From: Thermodesulfobacteriota bacterium
Lineage (GTDB): Bacteria > Desulfobacterota > Desulfobulbia > Desulfobulbales > SURF-16
NCBI GenBank assembly: GCA_039715015.1
Contig: JBDLIE010000007.1
Span: 23,402-87,401, forward strand
DNA: 64,000 nt
Direction: 5' to 3'
Shown here: positions 55,646-64,000 of the stretch, one piece after another
Numbering within the stretch: the first letter of the stretch is position 1
How the letters are laid out: each line of letters begins with the position of its first letter
The notes under the pieces: generated by a model
Databases searched by the model: none
The model's input: the letters and a program-made list of their open reading frames with translations, nothing else
What the model was told of the DNA's origin: nothing
Made by a program: the position numbers and the translations under genes

Positions 55646-55686
55646 AAAAAAGGGGCACACGGTAATAACCGTGTGCCCCTTAAAAA
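55646..55686. terminator. Intrinsic terminator just downstream of the tRNA-Pro 3' fragment
   Basis: AAGGGGCACACGGT / ACCGTGTGCCCCTT stem with U-tract on minus strand. Confidence 0.8.
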
Positions 55687-55687
55687 C

Positions 55688-55734
55688 TGGTCGGGATGAG
55701 AAGATTCGAACTTCCGACCACCTGAACCCCATTC
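55688..55734 (-). tRNA. 3' fragment of tRNA-Pro(GGG) (att-site duplication, not an intact tRNA)
   Basis: Minus strand GAATGGGGTTCAGGTGGTCGGAAGTTCGAATCTTCTCATCCCGACCA: anticodon loop, T-arm, acceptor 3' strand and CCA; 5' half replaced by an A-rich stretch. Confidence 0.85.
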
Positions 55735-55866
55735 CTTTTTTTTGCATTTTCACTTAAAATCACTCTCCATCATTCGACACCAAATAAACGTTTCACAAAC
55801 AACAAGTTACATTGTATAGTAATTTCACCTATTGACCACCTGTATCACTTAACATCATGGCAATTC

Positions 55867-55912
55867 CAGTAGCCCAGCAGTAGCCCAGGGGGCTGGGCTA
55901 CTGCTGGGCTAC
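55867..55912. repeat. Four GTAGCCCAG units (2 direct + 2 inverted): candidate integrase arm-type sites
   Basis: GTAGCCCAGCAGTAGCCCAG-GGGG-CTGGGCTACTGCTGGGCTAC, perfect 20-bp arms at 55869-55912. Confidence 0.75.
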
Positions 55913-55929
55913 CCCGAAGAGAAACGACG

Positions 55930-57369
55930 ATGAAATGTGAACTCACCACCCAAACCATTCAGGGCTTATCGCCCAAAAAGGCCCGTTATCTTTGCTGGGA
56001 TATCTCAAGCCCAGGATTCGGAGTCAGGGTGACCCCTAAGGGTGCCAAAACCTTTATCTATAAATATAAGATCGGGGGGCAAACCAGGTGGATCACCTAC
56101 GGCCAGTTCCCAGACCTCTCCCTGGCTGAGGCCAGAAAAAAATATTCCACCCACAAGAAGGCTGTAGAAAATGGCGGTGACCCTGGCCAGACAAAAACCG
56201 ATCTCAATTTTCAAACCATAAATGCCTTGGCACCTCGGAAAACACGTTTTATCCAGTGGGACAGAAAAAACCCCGGCTTTGGAGTCCGCGTGACCCCCCG
56301 AGGGATAAAAACCTTTGTTTTCAAATACACATCCGATGGCAGATCCAGGTGGATCACTTACGGCCAATTTCCAGCCTTGTCCCTAGCCGATGCCAGGAAA
56401 AAATATTTAGTTGATAAAGGGGCTGTAGCAAATGGCGCTGACCCTGGCAGGACTAAGCAAGAGGACAAGCACCAACGCATCACAAACCCTACCGGCAAAG
56501 AGCTGGTAAAGCTTTTCTGCGAAGGGTACACCAAGCCCCGGCCCAGCACCATGGCAGAATATAAACGCACCCTTGAGGTCGATTTTGTACCAGCGCTAGG
56601 CAGCCTCAAGTCGGCCGACATCAATCGCCGCGACATCCGCAACTTGATATTCAAAAAGGCCAAAACGGCCCCTGTGGCCGCTAACAGGCTCTTGGCGGCC
56701 ATTGGTGTCATGTTCACCTGGGCCATTAAAGAAGAGTACCTTGACGCCTCGCCTTGTGTGCTGATTGACAAACCCCACCAAGAAAAATCTCGCGACCGGG
56801 TCTTAAACAATCAAGAAATTGCTTCATTAATGGCCTGGTCACATCCCAGCACTACCAACATTCTTCTTAAATTAATCTTGCTTACCGTTAAGCGCCCAGG
56901 GGAATGGCGCTTGGCCAAGTGGCAGCATGTCGATTTCAAAAAGCAGACCTTTTTCGTCCCGGCTGAAAACTCCAAAAACCGCCATGAATATCTGACCCCC
57001 CTGCCCCCCTCCTCCATAAAACTCTTAAAAAAGCTACCTACCCATAGCGAATACATTTTCCCAGGCCCTAAGACCGATGAACCCATGACCAAAACGGGCG
57101 TTTGCCGCTTCATGGCCCGGCATTATGCTGACATGAAAATTGAGAAGGCAACCCCGCACGACCTAAGGCGGACAGCAGTGACCAACCTGGCAGAGTTGGG
57201 CACGCCTTTCCATGTCATCAAGAAGCTGGAAGGCCACAAGGACGGCAGCGTGGAGGCGATTTATAATAGATATGACTATCAGCCGGAAATGAAAAGTGCC
57301 CTGAGAAAGCTTGAGAATAAGATTTTGACCAAGCCGGCACAGGGGAAGGTGGTAAGCCTGTTTGGGTGA
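55930..57369 (+). CDS. Tyrosine integrase with two tandem N-terminal arm-DNA-binding domains
   Basis: Two ~87-aa repeats PGFGVRVTP.G.KTF..KY...G..RWITYGQFP.LSLA.ARKKY; catalytic R (KRPGE), K (SKN), HDLRR, GH, Y. Confidence 0.92.
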   Translation: MKCELTTQTIQGLSPKKARYLCWDISSPGFGVRVTPKGAKTFIYKYKIGGQTRWITYGQFPDLSLAEARKKYSTHKKAVENGGDPGQTKTDLNFQTINALAPRKTRFIQWDRKNPGFGVRVTPRGIKTFVFKYTSDGRSRWITYGQFPALSLADARKKYLVDKGAVANGADPGRTKQEDKHQRITNPTGKELVKLFCEGYTKPRPSTMAEYKRTLEVDFVPALGSLKSADINRRDIRNLIFKKAKTAPVAANRLLAAIGVMFTWAIKEEYLDASPCVLIDKPHQEKSRDRVLNNQEIASLMAWSHPSTTNILLKLILLTVKRPGEWRLAKWQHVDFKKQTFFVPAENSKNRHEYLTPLPPSSIKLLKKLPTHSEYIFPGPKTDEPMTKTGVCRFMARHYADMKIEKATPHDLRRTAVTNLAELGTPFHVIKKLEGHKDGSVEAIYNRYDYQPEMKSALRKLENKILTKPAQGKVVSLFG

Positions 57370-57399
57370 ATGGGCAGCAAGCAAACCGCCCATACGACA

Positions 57400-57808
57400 C
57401 TATGGCTCCCCGGCTCCCGTGGCCCAGGTATCAATCGGCAGATTAAAATACTGAATGGTACTGTTTAAACGGAGCCAGTATTTCTGGTCCTTTGGCTTTT
57501 CAAGGATGAGCACCACCCCCGCCCGCTTGCCGGTCTGTAACGAGTAATAAAGGCTCTACCCAATGGCCTCCGCCCATTTACTGCCAAAATCATGTTCTAT
57601 GGCGTGGGTGGCGGTGAGGCAATCCACTCTTATCCTGTCAGCCAGCACCACCTCTGTCTTGCCGCCGACCTCTGCGCACCATTTGCCTTGATACTATTTT
57701 TCTGGGTGGTCCATGCCCAGCAAAGGATAAAGCGGGCAGTAAAATAATTAAAATTACCGCTAGTAAAGCAAGGCTACCAGAAAATACCTTTTTGCTTTGC
57801 GGGTCCAT
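57400..57808 (-). pseudogene. Disrupted gene for a secreted restriction-endonuclease-fold-like protein
   Basis: Signal peptide from ATG 57808, one frameshift near 57710, then HPEK*YQGKWCAEVGGKTEVVLADRIRVDCLTATHAIEHDFGSKWAEAIG*SLYYSLQTGKRAGVVLILE...DTW with two in-frame TAG. Confidence 0.7.
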
Positions 57809-58131
57809 TAGACCTCCTCTTGGGCTCCATCTCACCTAACAATGTGGCGCCATACTTTCAGTTGAATATTTCACTGTAAGTTGTTAGCATTTAATGTAAA
57901 TTCCTAAAAAAATGCCACCAACAAGAAACCTGCGCTACTGTTATTCAACACCATCATATCTATAATTATAACGGTTTCCTTGCTGCAAAATGCTCTCGCT
58001 ATCTTAAAAAATCTCTTGCAAGGGAGCGGTAGCATTTCAGAAGTACAATGATGTATCTGATTTTTTTTTGCTCAGTGACAGATATTTCCAGGCATCTACC
58101 GAAAAAAAACATGGATCTTTTTAGACAAAAC

Positions 58132-58177
58132 GTGCAACTATATTTTAGTTGCACTGTTTTTTTACCGAGAGTATAAA
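58132..58177 (+). promoter_or_regulatory. hicAB operator palindrome and promoter
   Basis: GTGCAACTA-TATTT-TAGTTGCAC overlapping TTGCAC-N17-TATAAA. Confidence 0.65.
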
Positions 58178-58183
58178 CACACA

Positions 58184-58432
58184 GTGTCAAAAATAGACAA
58201 AATAATTGCCAGGCTTAAGTCACGCCCCAAAGATTTTACATGGGACGAGCTCACAAGGGTCATGTTTCATTTTGGATATACCCAACTTGAGGGAGGTGGG
58301 TCCCGCGTTAAGTTTTTTCACAAAGACAAGATGAGTGTTTTTAATCTTCACCGGCCTCACAAACCTAAAATATTGCGTGGGTATCAGATCAAAGAAGCAC
58401 TAAGCCGCCTGGAAACGGATGGATTTATATGA
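58184..58432 (+). CDS. hicA: HicA-family toxin
   Basis: PKDFTWDEL...FGY...GGGSRVKF...LHRPH...YQIK. Confidence 0.85.
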   Translation: MSKIDKIIARLKSRPKDFTWDELTRVMFHFGYTQLEGGGSRVKFFHKDKMSVFNLHRPHKPKILRGYQIKEALSRLETDGFI

Positions 58433-58932
58433 AAAACAAGACCATGACATACCAAGGCTATATAGGATCAGTTGAGTACGATATAGAGGATGAATTCCTT
58501 TATGGAAAAGTCCTTCATGTCAATGACACCGTCACATTTGAATCAACGACTATAGCTGGTTTAAAAAAAGAATTCATAGCAGCTGTTGATGACTATCTCG
58601 CCACCTGTAAACAAATAGGGAAAGAGCCCCAAAAAAGCTTCAAAGGCTCTCTAAATATTAGACTCGGTGAATCTGCACACAGGAAAGCCGCTATATGTGC
58701 TGGCAACCAAGACATTACCCTCAATGATTTTATTAAGAATGCAGTCTTAGAGGCAGTAAATAAAGATCAAAAGGCAGCCTCCGCACCTAAGGTTAGGTTT
58801 ACAGAGACTCCTGAATATTCATCTATGATTAAACCAAGAGATATTGTTGAGGATTTGATTCCCCCTGAGAAACAGGTGGTATGCCATTTTCAAATTTCAA
58901 ATCTCAGTGACGACAACTCAAGAGTACATTAA
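58429..58932 (+). CDS. hicB: HicB-family antitoxin with C-terminal extension
   Basis: YQGYIGSVEYD...AVDDYL...EPQKSFKGSLNIRL...H; ~55 extra residues after the RHH; ATGA overlap with hicA. Confidence 0.87.
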   Translation: MKNKTMTYQGYIGSVEYDIEDEFLYGKVLHVNDTVTFESTTIAGLKKEFIAAVDDYLATCKQIGKEPQKSFKGSLNIRLGESAHRKAAICAGNQDITLNDFIKNAVLEAVNKDQKAASAPKVRFTETPEYSSMIKPRDIVEDLIPPEKQVVCHFQISNLSDDNSRVH

Positions 58933-58936
58933 AAAA

Positions 58937-59386
58937 ATGATTAATCACGTTTGGTCTGTTCTTTGTCAGCAAACTATAGTAGACGCGAGGACCGGGGCCA
59001 CCACTCATGTCAACACGGTAAATGGGGCTTCTTTTTTTGAAGATGAAGAAAACCTTATACTTCCCCCTTTAGTAATTTCTACCAGGTGGGCAAAAGAAGA
59101 TACCACCAACGCAGAAACCACAGAGATCAGGGTCAGGATTGATCCTCCAGAGGGACGCGACAAGATCAAGATCGGTCAAGGAACAATTACACTAGGGACT
59201 GATCAGCATGGCATAAACTCAAATATTGAGGTTGCCCACCTAAGACTAAAAAGCGGTGGACGTTATTCTTTCCTGGTTGACCATCGAGATCCTGTGAAAA
59301 AAACTAGATGGAAAACAGTGGCAAAATTGCCAATAGACGTAAAATTAGTTCCCTCTCCAGAGAAAGAAGCGAACGAAAACGACTAG
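58937..59386 (+). CDS. Hypothetical beta-rich (DUF6941-like) protein, third gene of the hicAB operon
   Basis: ATG 4 nt after the hicB stop; WSVLC...D..TG pattern and alternating beta strands, G.Y.F.V. Confidence 0.6.
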   Translation: MINHVWSVLCQQTIVDARTGATTHVNTVNGASFFEDEENLILPPLVISTRWAKEDTTNAETTEIRVRIDPPEGRDKIKIGQGTITLGTDQHGINSNIEVAHLRLKSGGRYSFLVDHRDPVKKTRWKTVAKLPIDVKLVPSPEKEANEND

Positions 59387-59420
59387 TAGAGACCGTCCAG
59401 GGCAACCACTCCCCCCTCTT

Positions 59421-59624
59421 TTAAAAAATACTATTTTTCCAAAGGTTGTTAATGGCCCACCTGAACACCTCGACGGTATCAAATTGGGCCGGCTTGCCTT
59501 TGCCTTCAGCTTTCTTCTTAACCGGACACCCACGCCTGACCCATGAGTCTATTGTCGTTTTCGCCACCCCAAAAATGAAGGCCACCTCGGCCCGATTCTT
59601 TATCCTATCTTCCGGTTTACGCAT
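59421..59624 (-). CDS. Minimal lambda gpNu1-like terminase small-subunit DNA-binding domain
   Basis: NRAEVAFIFGVAKTTIDSWVRRGCPV...GKG....FDT..V..W parallels the gpNu1 winged HTH; only 67 aa. Confidence 0.8.
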   Translation of the reverse strand: MRKPEDRIKNRAEVAFIFGVAKTTIDSWVRRGCPVKKKAEGKGKPAQFDTVEVFRWAINNLWKNSIF

Positions 59625-59694
59625 TTTCTACCCCCTTTTAAAGAAGTAGTGGGCATAGTGGGATTTCCAAAAAAATCTATGCCTAGCCCGATTT

Positions 59695-59740
59695 CGCGAT
59701 GCGGATTACCTGCACTGCATATCCCCCCAGAAGGACCCGT
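59695..59740 (-). other. Candidate lambda-like cos site (cosQ plus putative cosN)
   Basis: Minus strand ACGGGTCCTT...CGCG; GGGTCCT (59732-59738) equals lambda cosQ; lies immediately upstream of the nu1-like gene. Confidence 0.55.
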
Positions 59741-60166
59741 TAACTCCTTGATATTGCAACTGTTTACCAGGAGTGGCCAGGCAGTATGAGCTGACAAGGG
59801 TCAATCGTTCAATATCGGAAAATTGAGCCCCGTAACACCCTCCACACTACATTGGAAAATTCAAACCACCCAACGACACCCTTTAGGGTCGTTTAAGCCC
59901 GGGGATGCATTGTTTTCTACGAAGGTTACCCATTTTCCTAGCCTAAGGGAAAGTGCCAGCCCGGCGGCATTGCCGGGCTGGCTTGCAGTCCATGGCCTAA
60001 AATGCGGGAATGCGGCCCGCCAGGTGGCACCATGAACCTAAAACAAGCCACCTGTTTGGTGCCGTGGCACAGGGAGAAAGGGCATGCCAGAGCCCCCCGG
60101 TGAGCAATGCCACGGCAATAAACAGCTCACCTATCCGACGACGGGGCAACCCCACCGCCGAATTTT

Positions 60167-61240
60167 TTAGACGCCGTCATTATTAAAAGCAAAGCTCTCG
60201 GGATGGCGGAGGGCGATGTCGCAGCTTTGCATCGCTAAAATTTCGATACTGCCCGCCAGGCTGTGCTTATAAGGATTCGGCAAAATTTCCAAACCGCCCC
60301 AAAGGCCAACAAGTAAATCTTGCCAATTTCCAAAAAAAACATCCCCACTGCTCACCTGGTTGGTGACGCCAGTTTTGTAGCCGTTCAACGAATTTTGGTT
60401 TTTGGGACCTTCATCCCAAACCATAACCCCTGACCCGCTGAATTTTTCAGTCGTTCTCAGGCTGCCGCGCATGGAAGGCTCGACAAGATAGCCAGAGTTA
60501 GAAAGCAAGGTGTTGTTGTCAACGGCCACTGCGGTCTCCATTGCCACAATCTCAGGCCAGGTTGGCACGGCAGCGGCGAAGAAGGTTGGGGTATTAATAC
60601 CCGCAGTATTCGCAATACCAGTAGGCTGGCCAGAGGTACCAGAGCCATAAAGGGCAGCCAGATCGATGGCGGCGGCTATACCTTCCGCGAGGTCATTCCG
60701 AATCATATTTTCAACATCAAAGGATGCCTGGATTAAAAGTTGCCGGGTGGCGATGCTATACGCACCGAGTGATTTCGGGGTCAGGGTAACCTGATCAAAA
60801 GCGGGCTCGCTTTGGGCCGCATCACCGCCTTCACTGACAATCCAGGTAGCGGCGCTTCCACTGGTTTTACGTGGAATGGCCACATTGCCGGTAAGGTCTG
60901 ACAAGATGGTGGCACCCATGCCCATGACCACGGACTGGTTGCGCAACACATCGATAAAGGAACCGGAAAGGAGATTATTGGCCACCAGATGCCCACCCGC
61001 AGTAGTGACACCCACGGATAAATCTCTGGCAAACAAAACATCGTTTGGGACCATCAGGCCGCGAGGACTAATCCCCGCCTGTTTTGCTGCGGCGGCAGAG
61101 CACTCAAGCTCAAAGCCAGCAGCGTCCCGATATTTCAAAGGTTCAATTTGAGCCAGAATGGCCCGGCAAAATGAATATTTTTTTGCCTCGGCATTGTTCA
61201 GGCCAATACCACGATAGTTAATATTTGCTAATTTCGTCAT
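60167..61240 (-). CDS. HK97-fold phage major capsid protein (stand-alone)
   Basis: AGGHLV, FIDVLRN, FDQVTLTPK, AIDLAALYGSGTSGQPTGI, FFGNW, DIALRHPESF; GAGGA RBS. Confidence 0.9.
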   Translation of the reverse strand: MTKLANINYRGIGLNNAEAKKYSFCRAILAQIEPLKYRDAAGFELECSAAAAKQAGISPRGLMVPNDVLFARDLSVGVTTAGGHLVANNLLSGSFIDVLRNQSVVMGMGATILSDLTGNVAIPRKTSGSAATWIVSEGGDAAQSEPAFDQVTLTPKSLGAYSIATRQLLIQASFDVENMIRNDLAEGIAAAIDLAALYGSGTSGQPTGIANTAGINTPTFFAAAVPTWPEIVAMETAVAVDNNTLLSNSGYLVEPSMRGSLRTTEKFSGSGVMVWDEGPKNQNSLNGYKTGVTNQVSSGDVFFGNWQDLLVGLWGGLEILPNPYKHSLAGSIEILAMQSCDIALRHPESFAFNNDGV

Positions 61241-61452
61241 GGATATATCCTCAATTAAAAAAATTGCCGCGACAGGCTTCGGCGGATGGATTCCGTGACA
61301 GGCCCGGAATATATAAAAGCGGCTTCAGGAGGGGGGGCCAATCTGGTTCCTACAGATTGACACTGCCGAGGCCACAATCCCCGAGAGCTAGATTCCCCCC
61401 ACCTTTAGCCTTTGACCAGGGACAGGAGGCCTGTCCACCTGGCCTTGGTCAA

Positions 61453-61722
61453 TCAAGTATTATGCGTCATCTTCTTGGAGTATCCCTGCCAGCGCTTGAC
61501 AAACGCCCGGCGATAAAAACTAAGCTCTTTAAGGGGGTACTGGTTGGCGACCTCCAGATCAAAAATTCTTTCTAAAATTTTTGTCAAAGATTCCGAGTTA
61601 TCAATGGTCCCCACCGAGGCACGGATCTGCGGTGTGCAACTACAGGCATGGCGGACTGGATCGCGCCGGGCAGGACACCATAGTTTATGGATTTTTTCAC
61701 CATTGGCCGTTGTCATTTTCAA
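61453..61722 (-). CDS. Hypothetical protein of the satellite
   Basis: GGAGG RBS before TTG 61722; co-oriented between rep and capsid. Confidence 0.55.
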   Translation of the reverse strand: MKMTTANGEKIHKLWCPARRDPVRHACSCTPQIRASVGTIDNSESLTKILERIFDLEVANQYPLKELSFYRRAFVKRWQGYSKKMTHNT

Positions 61723-61803
61723 ATTCCTCCCATGGCGGAAAATTCCGCCGCCAAGTCTTATTAGAAGGCTGACCTATCCAGGGTCAGTCCTTCTTTATAT
61801 AGG

Positions 61804-61968
61804 ACAACTGGACAGCTCAGATTAATTATCATGATTGCAGCTACTTACACTATCACCACTAACAACTGGACAGGTTGAGGTGTGGACAGGTCAAACAGCC
61901 TTTCAAATAAGCCTTGAACCTGGCCACTGACATAAGTCTACCCACTGGACAGGCGGTTATTGTACAGG
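61804..61968. repeat. TGGACAG(G) iteron cluster, candidate replication origin
   Basis: ACAACTGGACAG at 61804 and 61862; TGGACAGG at 61883 and 61946; TGTACAGG at 61961; directly downstream of the helicase gene. Confidence 0.65.
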
Positions 61969-63471
61969 TCAAGCAGCGCTCTTTGCCAAATACCTTGGCC
62001 CTACATTGTGGAGCTTGGCCCCTCTTGGTCCGTCCTCAACGACCACCCAACCTCCTTCGGTGGCATCATCCATGAGCTTCTCACTCACCCTCTTTGAGAT
62101 ATTAAATGTGGTCATAAGGAGGTTCCTCAAGGGTGCCTTGGGTATATTGCCGCTGTTATCGCTAATAAGTTCAGCGACCTTTAATGGCTCGATAGACGAC
62201 CCCCGCCAAAGGTCATGGCGAAAGGTGTCCGACCTACGCATAAAAAAATCCGTATTGGGCACTGGCCCATATCGCAATTTATCAACCGTGAGCTTTACAA
62301 ACTTTCCATGCTCACCTTCCGGCGTCTTGGCTGGTGACAGGACAAGGACACTTGCTGCCCAGTCACGTTTGGCCCCGGCACCGCGCATACTGTTTTGCTG
62401 ATGTTGGCTGGTCCCGGCGTATTTAGGTTGGTGGTCAGAGATAACCAGACCGAACCCATGCTTTTCAGCCACACGCTTTATTTGATCCAGGGCCCGCCGC
62501 ACCCCACCATTGTCATTTTCGTCGGCGCTAAAAAAAGATAGAAACGGATCAATGATAACAAGGTCCGCATCACATTTGACCACCTCTTCGCCTATGACCT
62601 GGCAAGCATTGCCACCCTCAGCCAGGTCTATGGATTCTATAACGTGGGCGACGTATATATTCCCAAGGGCTTGCTGGGCCTTTGCAGGGCTGGCAAAAGA
62701 ATAATCGTCAAGCATCGCCTTAAGGCGCTGTTGAAAAAATTGAGGCGGCAGCTCTGCCTGGACAATAAGGACCTTTAAAGGCCTGCCAACCACCCATTTA
62801 AGAACATCCAAACCACTGGCAGCCCGAAAGGCGAAATCAACCAAAAAAGCCGTTTTACCGGCTCCCCCGGCCCCGGCTATCATCAAGCCTTCACCTGGGA
62901 CAAGAAGGGCATCTCGAGGGCTGCCTATTAAGGGTTCTATTTTGCCAAAACTGTGATTTAAAAAATCCTGACAACAATAGATTTGAGTTGGTGAAGGTCC
63001 GACATACTCACAGGCAAGCATTCTGGGCAGCTCAGCATCACAAAGGGCATCCAGCTTCCCGAGGACATCGAACAGAGGCCTATTCCCTACCTCGGCTTCA
63101 TGAGCCATCTTTGCAATCTCGGCCCGTATATATCTTTCTTTTATTTTCTCGGCATGGTCCGGGCCAAATCCACTTGCGAGGACAGCGTCGGGGGCCTCAG
63201 CAATCCAGGCCATGAGCTTCATATCATGGCCGCAGGCCTTGGAGGCCGCTACAATATCAACGGGAACCCCATCCCTAAGGAGTTCTTGGCAAATCCGATA
63301 TGCCTGCTTCGCGTAGTTGCCGACCAGACTCTTATCATCCACCGTGCTCAATAATTTTTTTTGCTTATCTACCGACCTTGAACGGATGACCGCGCCAATA
63401 AACGCCTGCTCGTCATCGGTTGCCTGATGCAGATATGATTGAGAATATGGCAGCTGCATTAGGGGGGTCAT
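61969..63471 (-). CDS. Replication helicase (DnaB-N-like + AAA_25/RepA-type ATPase)
   Basis: EQAFIGAVI N-terminus; Walker A GAGGAGKT; Walker B LVIIDP; DHQPK, RGAGA, KLRYG. Confidence 0.85.
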   Translation of the reverse strand: MTPLMQLPYSQSYLHQATDDEQAFIGAVIRSRSVDKQKKLLSTVDDKSLVGNYAKQAYRICQELLRDGVPVDIVAASKACGHDMKLMAWIAEAPDAVLASGFGPDHAEKIKERYIRAEIAKMAHEAEVGNRPLFDVLGKLDALCDAELPRMLACEYVGPSPTQIYCCQDFLNHSFGKIEPLIGSPRDALLVPGEGLMIAGAGGAGKTAFLVDFAFRAASGLDVLKWVVGRPLKVLIVQAELPPQFFQQRLKAMLDDYSFASPAKAQQALGNIYVAHVIESIDLAEGGNACQVIGEEVVKCDADLVIIDPFLSFFSADENDNGGVRRALDQIKRVAEKHGFGLVISDHQPKYAGTSQHQQNSMRGAGAKRDWAASVLVLSPAKTPEGEHGKFVKLTVDKLRYGPVPNTDFFMRRSDTFRHDLWRGSSIEPLKVAELISDNSGNIPKAPLRNLLMTTFNISKRVSEKLMDDATEGGWVVVEDGPRGAKLHNVGPRYLAKSAA

Positions 63472-63809
63472 TCCCTTATACGCCTTTTAGATTTACCACG
63501 GGACTTATCGAGTTGGTCACGTAGTGGTGGCCTCATTTCTTTATATCGAGCCTTAACCACAACGGTGCGCGCTGCCAGAAAATGCGCCAGCTCGTACTTG
63601 TCATAGAAAACCGTCCTGCCATTGAACACGTATTTGGTTGGCGTTTCTACCTCCTGGTCACAGTCAAGGTTTGCCATTGTCCTCGGCTCCATCGCACCAC
63701 CAGAAAAAACGCCTACTTTTTTTCGGGCGACAGATTCGCTTTGCCAGTTATCCACTGCTCGTTGCCAGATCGGGGGAAGGGGCTGGGAGTTTGGCGTTTT
63801 ATCATCCAT
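63468..63809 (-). CDS. AlpA/excisionase-like DNA-binding protein
   Basis: VARKKVGVFSGGAMEPRTMANLD...GRTVFY...LAHFL pattern; ATGA overlap with the helicase gene. Confidence 0.65.
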   Translation of the reverse strand: MDDKTPNSQPLPPIWQRAVDNWQSESVARKKVGVFSGGAMEPRTMANLDCDQEVETPTKYVFNGRTVFYDKYELAHFLAARTVVVKARYKEMRPPLRDQLDKSRGKSKRRIRE

Positions 63810-64000
63810 CGCAAAAAATCTCCCTTGATTTCTTATGATCCAACACCCTTAAAAAATATTTTGCAAGAATAAAATTAGACGCATATACTTGATATTGCGA
63901 GTTAATAACAACACCCTCAAGCACAACTTGATCAACCTTGTGGTCAAGTTCCGGCTTTCAAAATGATGAAATTCAGGCTCTATTACAACGAAAAGTCGCA

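Follow-up and report, generated by a model that had tools for sequence, protein, structure and literature searches.

The 64,000-nucleotide stretch analysed here (the window) is the terminal 64 kb of contig C7 in the genome of a Thermodesulfobacteriota bacterium (G000), and the contig ends where the window ends. At this end lies a complete mobile element in a tRNA gene, not a fragment of one, and we propose that it is quite probably an intact, integrated cos-type phage-inducible chromosomal island (PICI), a satellite that hijacks the packaging of lambda-like phages. Its five-part plan is that of a type A PICI, a known kind, in which the combination of a capsid gene, a cos site and a gene resembling that of the small terminase subunit (TerS) is ordinary and not new. 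Judged from the reading frames, the element appears to depart from known PICIs in a capsid protein without protease, a TerS-like protein reduced to the DNA-binding domain (mini-TerS) and a convergent integrase gene with a doubled arm-binding domain.

A complete element in a tRNA-Pro gene

The left boundary is an att core copy at 55688–55734 (minus strand), an exact 47-bp repeat of the 3′ part of tRNA-Pro(GGG), which bears out the att fragment that a preliminary description of this DNA had placed at the edge of the element; a terminator-like hairpin of the host adjoins it (55650–55681). At the right, the final 99 nt of the window (63902–64000) recur exactly as the start of contig C30. No other such overlap was found. 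The shared stretch includes an arm of the 21-bp inverted repeat that precedes the operon described below. Contig C30 carries an intact tRNA-Pro(GGG) gene at 386–462 on its minus strand, including the second 47-bp att copy (386–432); the preliminary description had named such an intact gene and second copy beforehand as a check. Only 333 further bases separate the window end from this copy, and no phage head or tail module, which the same description had named as counting against a satellite, lies between them. The integrated element thus spans 8,646 bp from att to att across C7 and C30, its core reading frames are intact, and the predicted excised circle is 8,599 bp. Truncation of the element by the contig end was considered and rejected, as C30 closes the element. 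Four GTAGCCC repeats arranged as a perfect 20-bp inverted pair at 55869–55912 are probable integrase arm-type sites, and two more repeats lie inside the other att end (C30 312–330), so that six in total flank the att cores.

The join of C7 and C30 is supported by four of the seven same-genus genomes (G003, G005, G006 and G007), in which the site is empty and the C30-side genes pheT-ihfA-merR-tRNA-Pro stand at most 3.5 kb from the window-side histidine kinase gene, with ppnP between the two flanks in G003 and G007. The flank linkage did not show in G002 or G001. In sequencing run X1, a 402-nt contig begins at 63902 and continues, and a loose end carries C30 sequence; this support is not independent, because X1 may be the source of the present assembly. 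Next to none of the element is present in run X2. This assembly and the X1 contigs both break at 63887–63901 (X1 record 7 ends at 63886 and record 8 resumes at 63902). The break lies immediately upstream of the 21-bp inverted repeat, in the probable promoter region of the operon, and is possibly a population variant. In the same-genus genome G004, the site is occupied by some 35 kb of other genes, which have no match to the element proteins; this block (L241-L242, C64:19900-54600) runs from tRNA-Pro to ppnP, and several of its genes appear by eye to be multiheme-cytochrome or sensor-like.

The gene plan of a type A PICI

The five-component PICI model comprises an integrase, a regulator (AlpA, MerR or Stl homologue), a primase-replicase, a capsid protein and a small terminase homologue (PMC10085698). 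The element matches this model in its integrase and att duplication, its replicase with a 3′ origin, its capsid protein and its small terminase homologue, of which the DNA-binding domain alone is present; for the regulator the match is at most weak. Together with the att pair, this content supports the PICI-like cos-type satellite that the preliminary description had read here, and the integrase, toxin–antitoxin cargo, helicase, iterons, hypothetical open reading frame (ORF), capsid gene, cos-like site and mini-terS that it listed are all present at the places it gave. The operon is on the minus strand and runs, from the tRNA end, through a 113-aa ORF, an AAA_25 helicase gene, the iterons, an 89-aa ORF, the capsid gene, the cos-like site and the 67-aa Nu1-type gene. 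On the plus strand at the other end is the gene of a 479-aa tyrosine integrase (55930–57369; Pfam Phage_integrase, 3e-22). Integrase gene and operon converge in the integrated element, and in the excised circle they would point away from each other across attP; Gram-negative PICIs are described as transcribed one way (PMC6092414), and the layout is in this respect atypical, as had been remarked from the letters.

The helicase (500 aa; 61969–63471, minus) is RepA/DnaB-like, with an AAA_25 match at 2e-26 and a weak DnaB N-terminal match. Directly 3′ of its gene is a probable origin (61809–61952, plus) with four TGGACAG iterons and an AT-rich stretch behind the first, in agreement with the PICI plan, in which the origin lies just 3′ of the replicase gene (PMC6092414). 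Four copies compare with 0.036 expected per 250 nt, and the motif is not enriched window-wide (11 versus 7.8 ± 3.0). The 113-aa ORF (63468–63809, minus) stands where an AlpA/Xis-like gene had been announced, and that label fares less well: it has no Pfam, PHROG or NCBIfam match, its look-alikes in the Atlas are of the HTH_17/AlpA type and fall below the bar for naming, and it weakly matches (E 2e-5) the ORF at the regulator position of the sister island L290, which tentatively suggests a winged helix-turn-helix regulator or excisionase. Its predicted fold, made without an alignment, was uninformative (predicted local distance difference test score, pLDDT, 42). As locus queries, the 113-aa protein matched only itself, the helicase and the integrase gave no loci among viral sequences, and the capsid protein gave none among genomes.

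A cos-like site at 59695–59738 (minus) comprises a cosQ-like GGGTCCT, which precedes the start of mini-terS by 114 nt, and behind it an imperfect palindrome at the position at which related phage records end. The records of lambda, Arya, Mano, PPpW-3 and FoX1 end 24–43 nt past a GGGTCCT-type motif preceding terS, and the record start of Mano is annotated as a predicted cohesive end. Exact GGGTCCT was found at most 250 nt before a terS-like gene in 8 of 11 loci (the window, L039, L289-L292, L034 and L153, but not L295, L293 or L037), with 0.005 expected per 150 nt, and in L027 it is located after the capsid gene. A hand-made cos pattern hit 7 of 44 phage loci and none of the 44 stretches used as controls; it also came up once in the genome and in 5 of 100 shuffled versions of the window. 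It is partly circular, because it was written after the window had been seen. Taken on sequence, the cos-like site appears well supported by position and weakly by profile. An X1 contig of depth 65 has one base fewer than the window in the C run of the cos spacer (59723–59728), and the window run may be a minor allele or an error. Between the capsid gene and cos, a consensus scan alone gave an 11-pair terminator-like hairpin (59955–59982, minus).

The terminase and portal families PF05876, PF05136, PF03237, PF04860 and PF03354 each had no match in the genome, which is rated 99.99% complete, and matched in 3 to 5 of 14 genomes used as controls. Phage TerL, gpW, portal and protease sequences used as tblastn queries likewise had no matches, and library scans of the element ORFs gave no tail, holin, portal or head-tail genes, tail and holin families not having been searched genome-wide. 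Therefore, the element is not the edge of a prophage and not a capsid-forming PICI (cf-PICI), and no helper resides in the assembly: the absence of portal, TerL, protease and tail genes noted in the window holds to the second att copy, and the helper prophage that was to be sought in the genome was not found. The cf-PICI assignment was rejected for want of TerL and portal, as cf-PICIs encode TerL, portal, head-tail adaptor and connector. The cultured phages Arya, Mano, PPpW-3 and FoX are matched by the capsid protein and by mini-TerS alike. The host, taken beforehand for a probable sulfur-cycling bacterium, has dsrA above the cut-off with sulfate-reducer enzymes as the closest Protein Data Bank entries, and the sequencing run is labelled marine metagenome.

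Type A PICIs such as EcCICFT073, of which 375 are reported, 97% of them in E. coli (PMC10085698), share with the element the integrase, a regulator that is only putative in the element, the replicase with its origin 3′ of it and the capsid gene (PMC10085698, PMC6092414, PMC6739421), and likewise have cos followed by a Nu1-like gene, a length of about 9 kb and a lambda-type helper class, with no portal, TerL, tail or holin. The element differs from them in an HK97-family capsid protein from protease-capsid fusions, a helicase without primase domain and a dsrA-bearing marine host. The satellites known as cf-PICIs, PICI-like tycheposons and marine VEIMEs likewise combine an integrase and a replicase with a packaging gene of some sort. 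However, the PICI-like tycheposons carry the major capsid protein or TerS and, in the published set, no cargo, which the element has; and the VEIMEs encoded no major capsid gene (PMC9618062), whereas the element has one.

A capsid protein without protease

The capsid protein (357 aa; 60167–61240, minus; PF05065, 5e-44) has a predicted HK97 fold (pLDDT 84.5), with roseophage R4C (8gta) as the best structural match (E 3e-23). Residues 11–70 form an ordered helical pro-region of about 60 aa, and a loose linker follows Arg72, which is at least 90% conserved across 74 sequences and is probably the maturation site, given this conservation and the start points of solved chains. Close relatives are mostly protease-capsid fusions of about 600 aa. 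The element protein is 64–67% identical to the nearest fused phage proteins, and in the fusion of phage L001 (64% identical) the shared part starts near residue 260 of 600. The capsid gene has its own ribosome-binding site, with only 28 open codons upstream, and it therefore genuinely lacks both the protease and the first part of the scaffold.

By tblastn, 125 of 173 capsid-family loci, a set that includes duplicates across collections, had the protease together with portal or TerL and 16 the protease only; 16 had too little upstream DNA, 12 gave weak matches, and 4 were without protease, portal and TerL. Those 4 loci are islands integrated in tRNA genes, and L038 among them carries its protease as a gene of its own. 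Quick trees place the window capsid and that of Desulfosarcina alkanivorans, which is likewise protease-less, among different fused proteins, and protease-less capsids were probably captured from phage fusions at least twice. Queried with the capsid protein, none of 60 relatives and 9 of 400 phylum genomes gave matches, the latter all 35–41% identical at the tblastn level only. A single origin of protease-less capsids, with 4 short rows held together against 24, was rejected in an approximately unbiased (AU) test (p 0.011), for which the group had been named after a first tree was seen and in which two of the four short rows are unverified gene calls.

SaPIbov5 is a staphylococcal, Stl-regulated satellite. 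Like the element, it is of the cos type, and its capsid protein Ccm has a pro-domain shorter than that of the helper and no protease of its own (PMC8569155); the element protein has these Ccm-type features, namely the HK97 fold, a shortened pro-domain and no own protease. Ccm is 24% identical to the helper capsid protein, versus 64–67% for the element and the nearest fused phage proteins, and size redirection has been proven for Ccm only, not for the element capsid (PMC8569155).

A TerS reduced to its DNA-binding domain

Mini-TerS (67 aa; 59421–59624, minus) consists of a Nu1-type DNA-binding domain only. It matches the terminase small subunit family phrog_57 (6e-10), Pfam Nu1 below the cut-off (1e-5), the DNA-binding domain of gpNu1 (1j9i, 68 aa; E 3e-5) and the N-terminus of RppC (6hlk; E 2e-4), so that the N-terminal TerS-like winged helix-turn-helix downstream of cos, as in Rpp, is present. 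The protein stops ten residues past the last conserved Trp, no C-terminal continuation was seen in three frames, and the Rpp dimer helices (residues 65–139) are absent; Rpp proteins have 144–153 aa with these helices (PMC6739421). Lacking the dimerisation helices that RppA needs, mini-TerS is therefore not an Rpp in the strict sense, as the preliminary description had likened it, and is at most Rpp-like in action.

The short form recurs. Eight of the ten top matches among 1.84 billion representatives are short (64–81 aa), and relatives of at most 85 aa make up 9 of 15 at E ≤ 1e-10 versus 15 of the next 135. A 69-aa copy in G043 (L289), verified in the DNA, stands behind a cos motif in the same gene order, followed by Panacea-type cargo and tRNA-Thr, and its contig ends just upstream. 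Among viral contigs, no short TerS was found in the 35 of 43 loci checked (8 near-duplicates were left out), 33 of which have TerL and 144–205 aa from match to stop. The mini-TerS profile gave hits in 8 of 400 genomes of the phylum and in 3 of 300 of the order, and the 7 loci fetched comprise 2 prophages with TerL and 5 without a TerL match.

Sister islands

Seven sister islands with att repeats of 20–57 bp span 8.4–10.4 kb. Integrase and operon are co-oriented in seven of the eight seen with both (L027, L036, L038, L039, L290, L291 and L292) and divergent in L034. The islands L027, L039, G043 (L289), G597, G046 and G280 are, like the element, integrated in tRNA genes and carry the cos motif, with 8.9–10.4 kb where both ends are seen, and L289 shares with it the mini-TerS. 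In Desulfosarcina alkanivorans PL12, an 8.9-kb island occupies tRNA-Pro(TGG) (L027:5670-14602), with a protease-less capsid, cos motif and HicB cargo as in the element; it differs in the co-oriented integrase, in the capsid of separate origin and in having no TerS match, a 199-aa ORF of no named family occupying the terS position. In the 9.2-kb island in tRNA-Asn of Desulfosarcina cetonica (L039:4434-13743), unlike the element, the integrase is co-oriented, a fused protease-capsid gene is kept, broken into two frames, and TerS is full-length; it also has a gpZ-like ORF and the cos motif. In an 8.9-kb Saprospiraceae island (L036:36-8961), a member of this capsid family occurs alongside HNH and a Terminase_4-type TerS. 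L290, L291, L292 and L295 are integrase-replicase-terS islands without a TerL match in order and phylum relatives, and L295, which is decayed-looking, has a 79-aa terS-like gene.

Proposed life cycle and alternative explanations

Based on this gene content, we infer excision, packaging and capsid resizing as follows. First, infection by a lambda-like phage with a Nu1/gpA terminase and a fused protease-capsid gene would switch on the leftward operon, and the 113-aa protein together with the integrase would excise the 8,599-bp circle. Loading of the helicase at the iterons would follow, with copying of the circle left to the primase and polymerase of the host. The helper TerL would cut at the cos of the element, where mini-TerS could pair with the helper TerS via the DNA-binding domains, the mixed dimer reading the cosB of the element and the helper subunit bringing TerL; this use of the helper terminase would also starve phage packaging. 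Lambda TerS is described as dimerising through its DNA-binding domain (PMC9026076), and we regard the mixed dimer as a nearly balanced proposition, tilted slightly towards doubt. The capsid protein, unable to process itself, would co-assemble with helper subunits, and the helper protease would cut after Arg72. It may bias the shells to a smaller size, as Ccm, which resizes heads (PMC8569155), does in SaPIbov5; this resizing is put forward tentatively. The R4C capsid is T=7 with 415 subunits (PMC10276861). Should helpers share this geometry and have genomes of 30–45 kb, arithmetic alone would give room for about one or two copies of the element in a T=3 or T=4 shell. HicAB might stabilise the element or add defence.

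Several results weigh against this reading. In the element, no primase domain was detected and one cargo gene is broken (57400–57808, by a frameshift and an internal stop). No helper prophage was found in this assembly, and run X1 gave neither excision nor extra copies, with a depth of 62–65 inside and 65–67 outside and, among the listed loose ends at the att copy, none that matches the other element end. Held-out nhmmer cos profiles were not significant: in two of them the site came first or second genome-wide, at E 2.8 and 5.7, and a third gave E 0.61 in 34 kb with the site outside the top six of the genome. Several of the short mini-TerS relatives come from contigs of less than 2 kb and may be cut. 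RppC dimerises via residues 65–139, and an RppA mutant there loses TerS binding (PMC6739421). The capsid gene of EcCICFT073 did not give rise to small heads, and interference persisted when it was deleted (PMC6092414).

The same satellite could instead travel as concatemers in full-size helper heads, its capsid protein being a decoy or minor component that resizes nothing. The DNA of EcCICFT073 is described as phage-sized and its capsid gene as dispensable for interference (PMC6092414), marine VEIMEs are packaged as concatemers (PMC9618062), and the sister islands L290-L292 have no tblastn match to the element capsid. Yet the element capsid retains a complete HK97 fold together with the conserved pro-region, belongs to the same family as that of the presumed helper and has a pro-domain shortened like that of Ccm (87 vs 128 aa; PMC8569155), and we consider such passage possible, on balance doubtful. 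Unlikely, in our view, is that mini-TerS acts solely as a dominant-negative inhibitor or a MerR-like regulator or excisionase, the helper terminase packaging the element via cos with no redirection. Mini-TerS is indeed without the oligomerisation and TerL-binding part (domain plan in PMC9026076) and weakly matches excisionase and MerR families, and the island L027 has capsid and cos motif with no TerS match; but the short TerS stands in the terS position directly behind cos in two genomes, and its best named matches are phage TerS.

That a once-active satellite is now stranded in a lineage without a helper would agree with the want of any helper or excision in the data and of capsid matches among the relatives. 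However, the att copies are identical over 47 bp and the core genes unbroken, and the element is absent from close relatives and its arrival therefore recent, which makes stranding improbable. It is very improbable that the element is a prophage in decay, deprived of TerL, portal, protease and tail and with a recently truncated terS, since, despite one broken gene and a capsid and terS from one phage group, the order capsid-cos-terS differs from cos-terS-terL-gpW-portal-capsid in phage loci, tblastn gave no TerL, portal or protease remnants, the capsid gene has its own ribosome-binding site with only 28 open codons upstream, and sister islands share size and plan while the short TerS form recurs.

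The cos-type PICI preferred here would take the type A PICIs beyond E. coli, the host of nearly all reported cases, into a marine lineage with dsrA. It would also add a helper class, the Nu1/gpA phages with a fused protease-capsid gene, for which a literature search mostly outside subscription journals gave no described satellite. The same search gave no satellite reported for this host group and no TerS of a DNA-binding domain only; elements of this sort may occur in the host lists of the PMC10085698 supplement. Mini-TerS would naturally put to the test the published hypothesis in which cosB is read by the satellite protein and the helper TerS does no more than escort TerL (PMC9026076), and the capsid would be a test of PICI capsid gene function, which is open for EcCICFT073. 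More speculatively, and with the balance clearly against it, the element might stand for a minimal-satellite class in sulfur-cycling and other environmental bacteria, in which a protease-less, head-shrinking capsid that needs the helper protease is combined with a 65–80-aa TerS domain that redirects by direct pairing with no dimer scaffold, both being truncations of helper genes made repeatedly. If neither protein acts as proposed, the element is an ordinary new PICI.

Accessory genes and the integrase arm domain

The 89-aa ORF of the operon (61453–61722, minus) had no match in the family libraries and no usable Atlas hit. Next to the integrase gene, the broken cargo gene (57400–57808, minus) has a hydrophobic N-terminus in one frame and the rest in another frame with an internal stop, and no family name was obtained for it. 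The hicA-hicB toxin–antitoxin pair (58184–58932, plus; HicA 58184–58432, HicB 58429–58932, both above the Pfam cut-off) is followed by a 159-aa ORF (58907–59386, plus) with a weak DUF6941 match (E 0.01). PADLOC matched none of six element ORFs, the 159-aa ORF included. These three cargo genes are low in GC, with 40% versus 51% for the operon. The integrase has two Arm-DNA-bind_3 (PF13356) stretches, its N-terminal arm-binding domain being tandemly duplicated (55930–56480), with halves 61% identical in protein and 73% in DNA.

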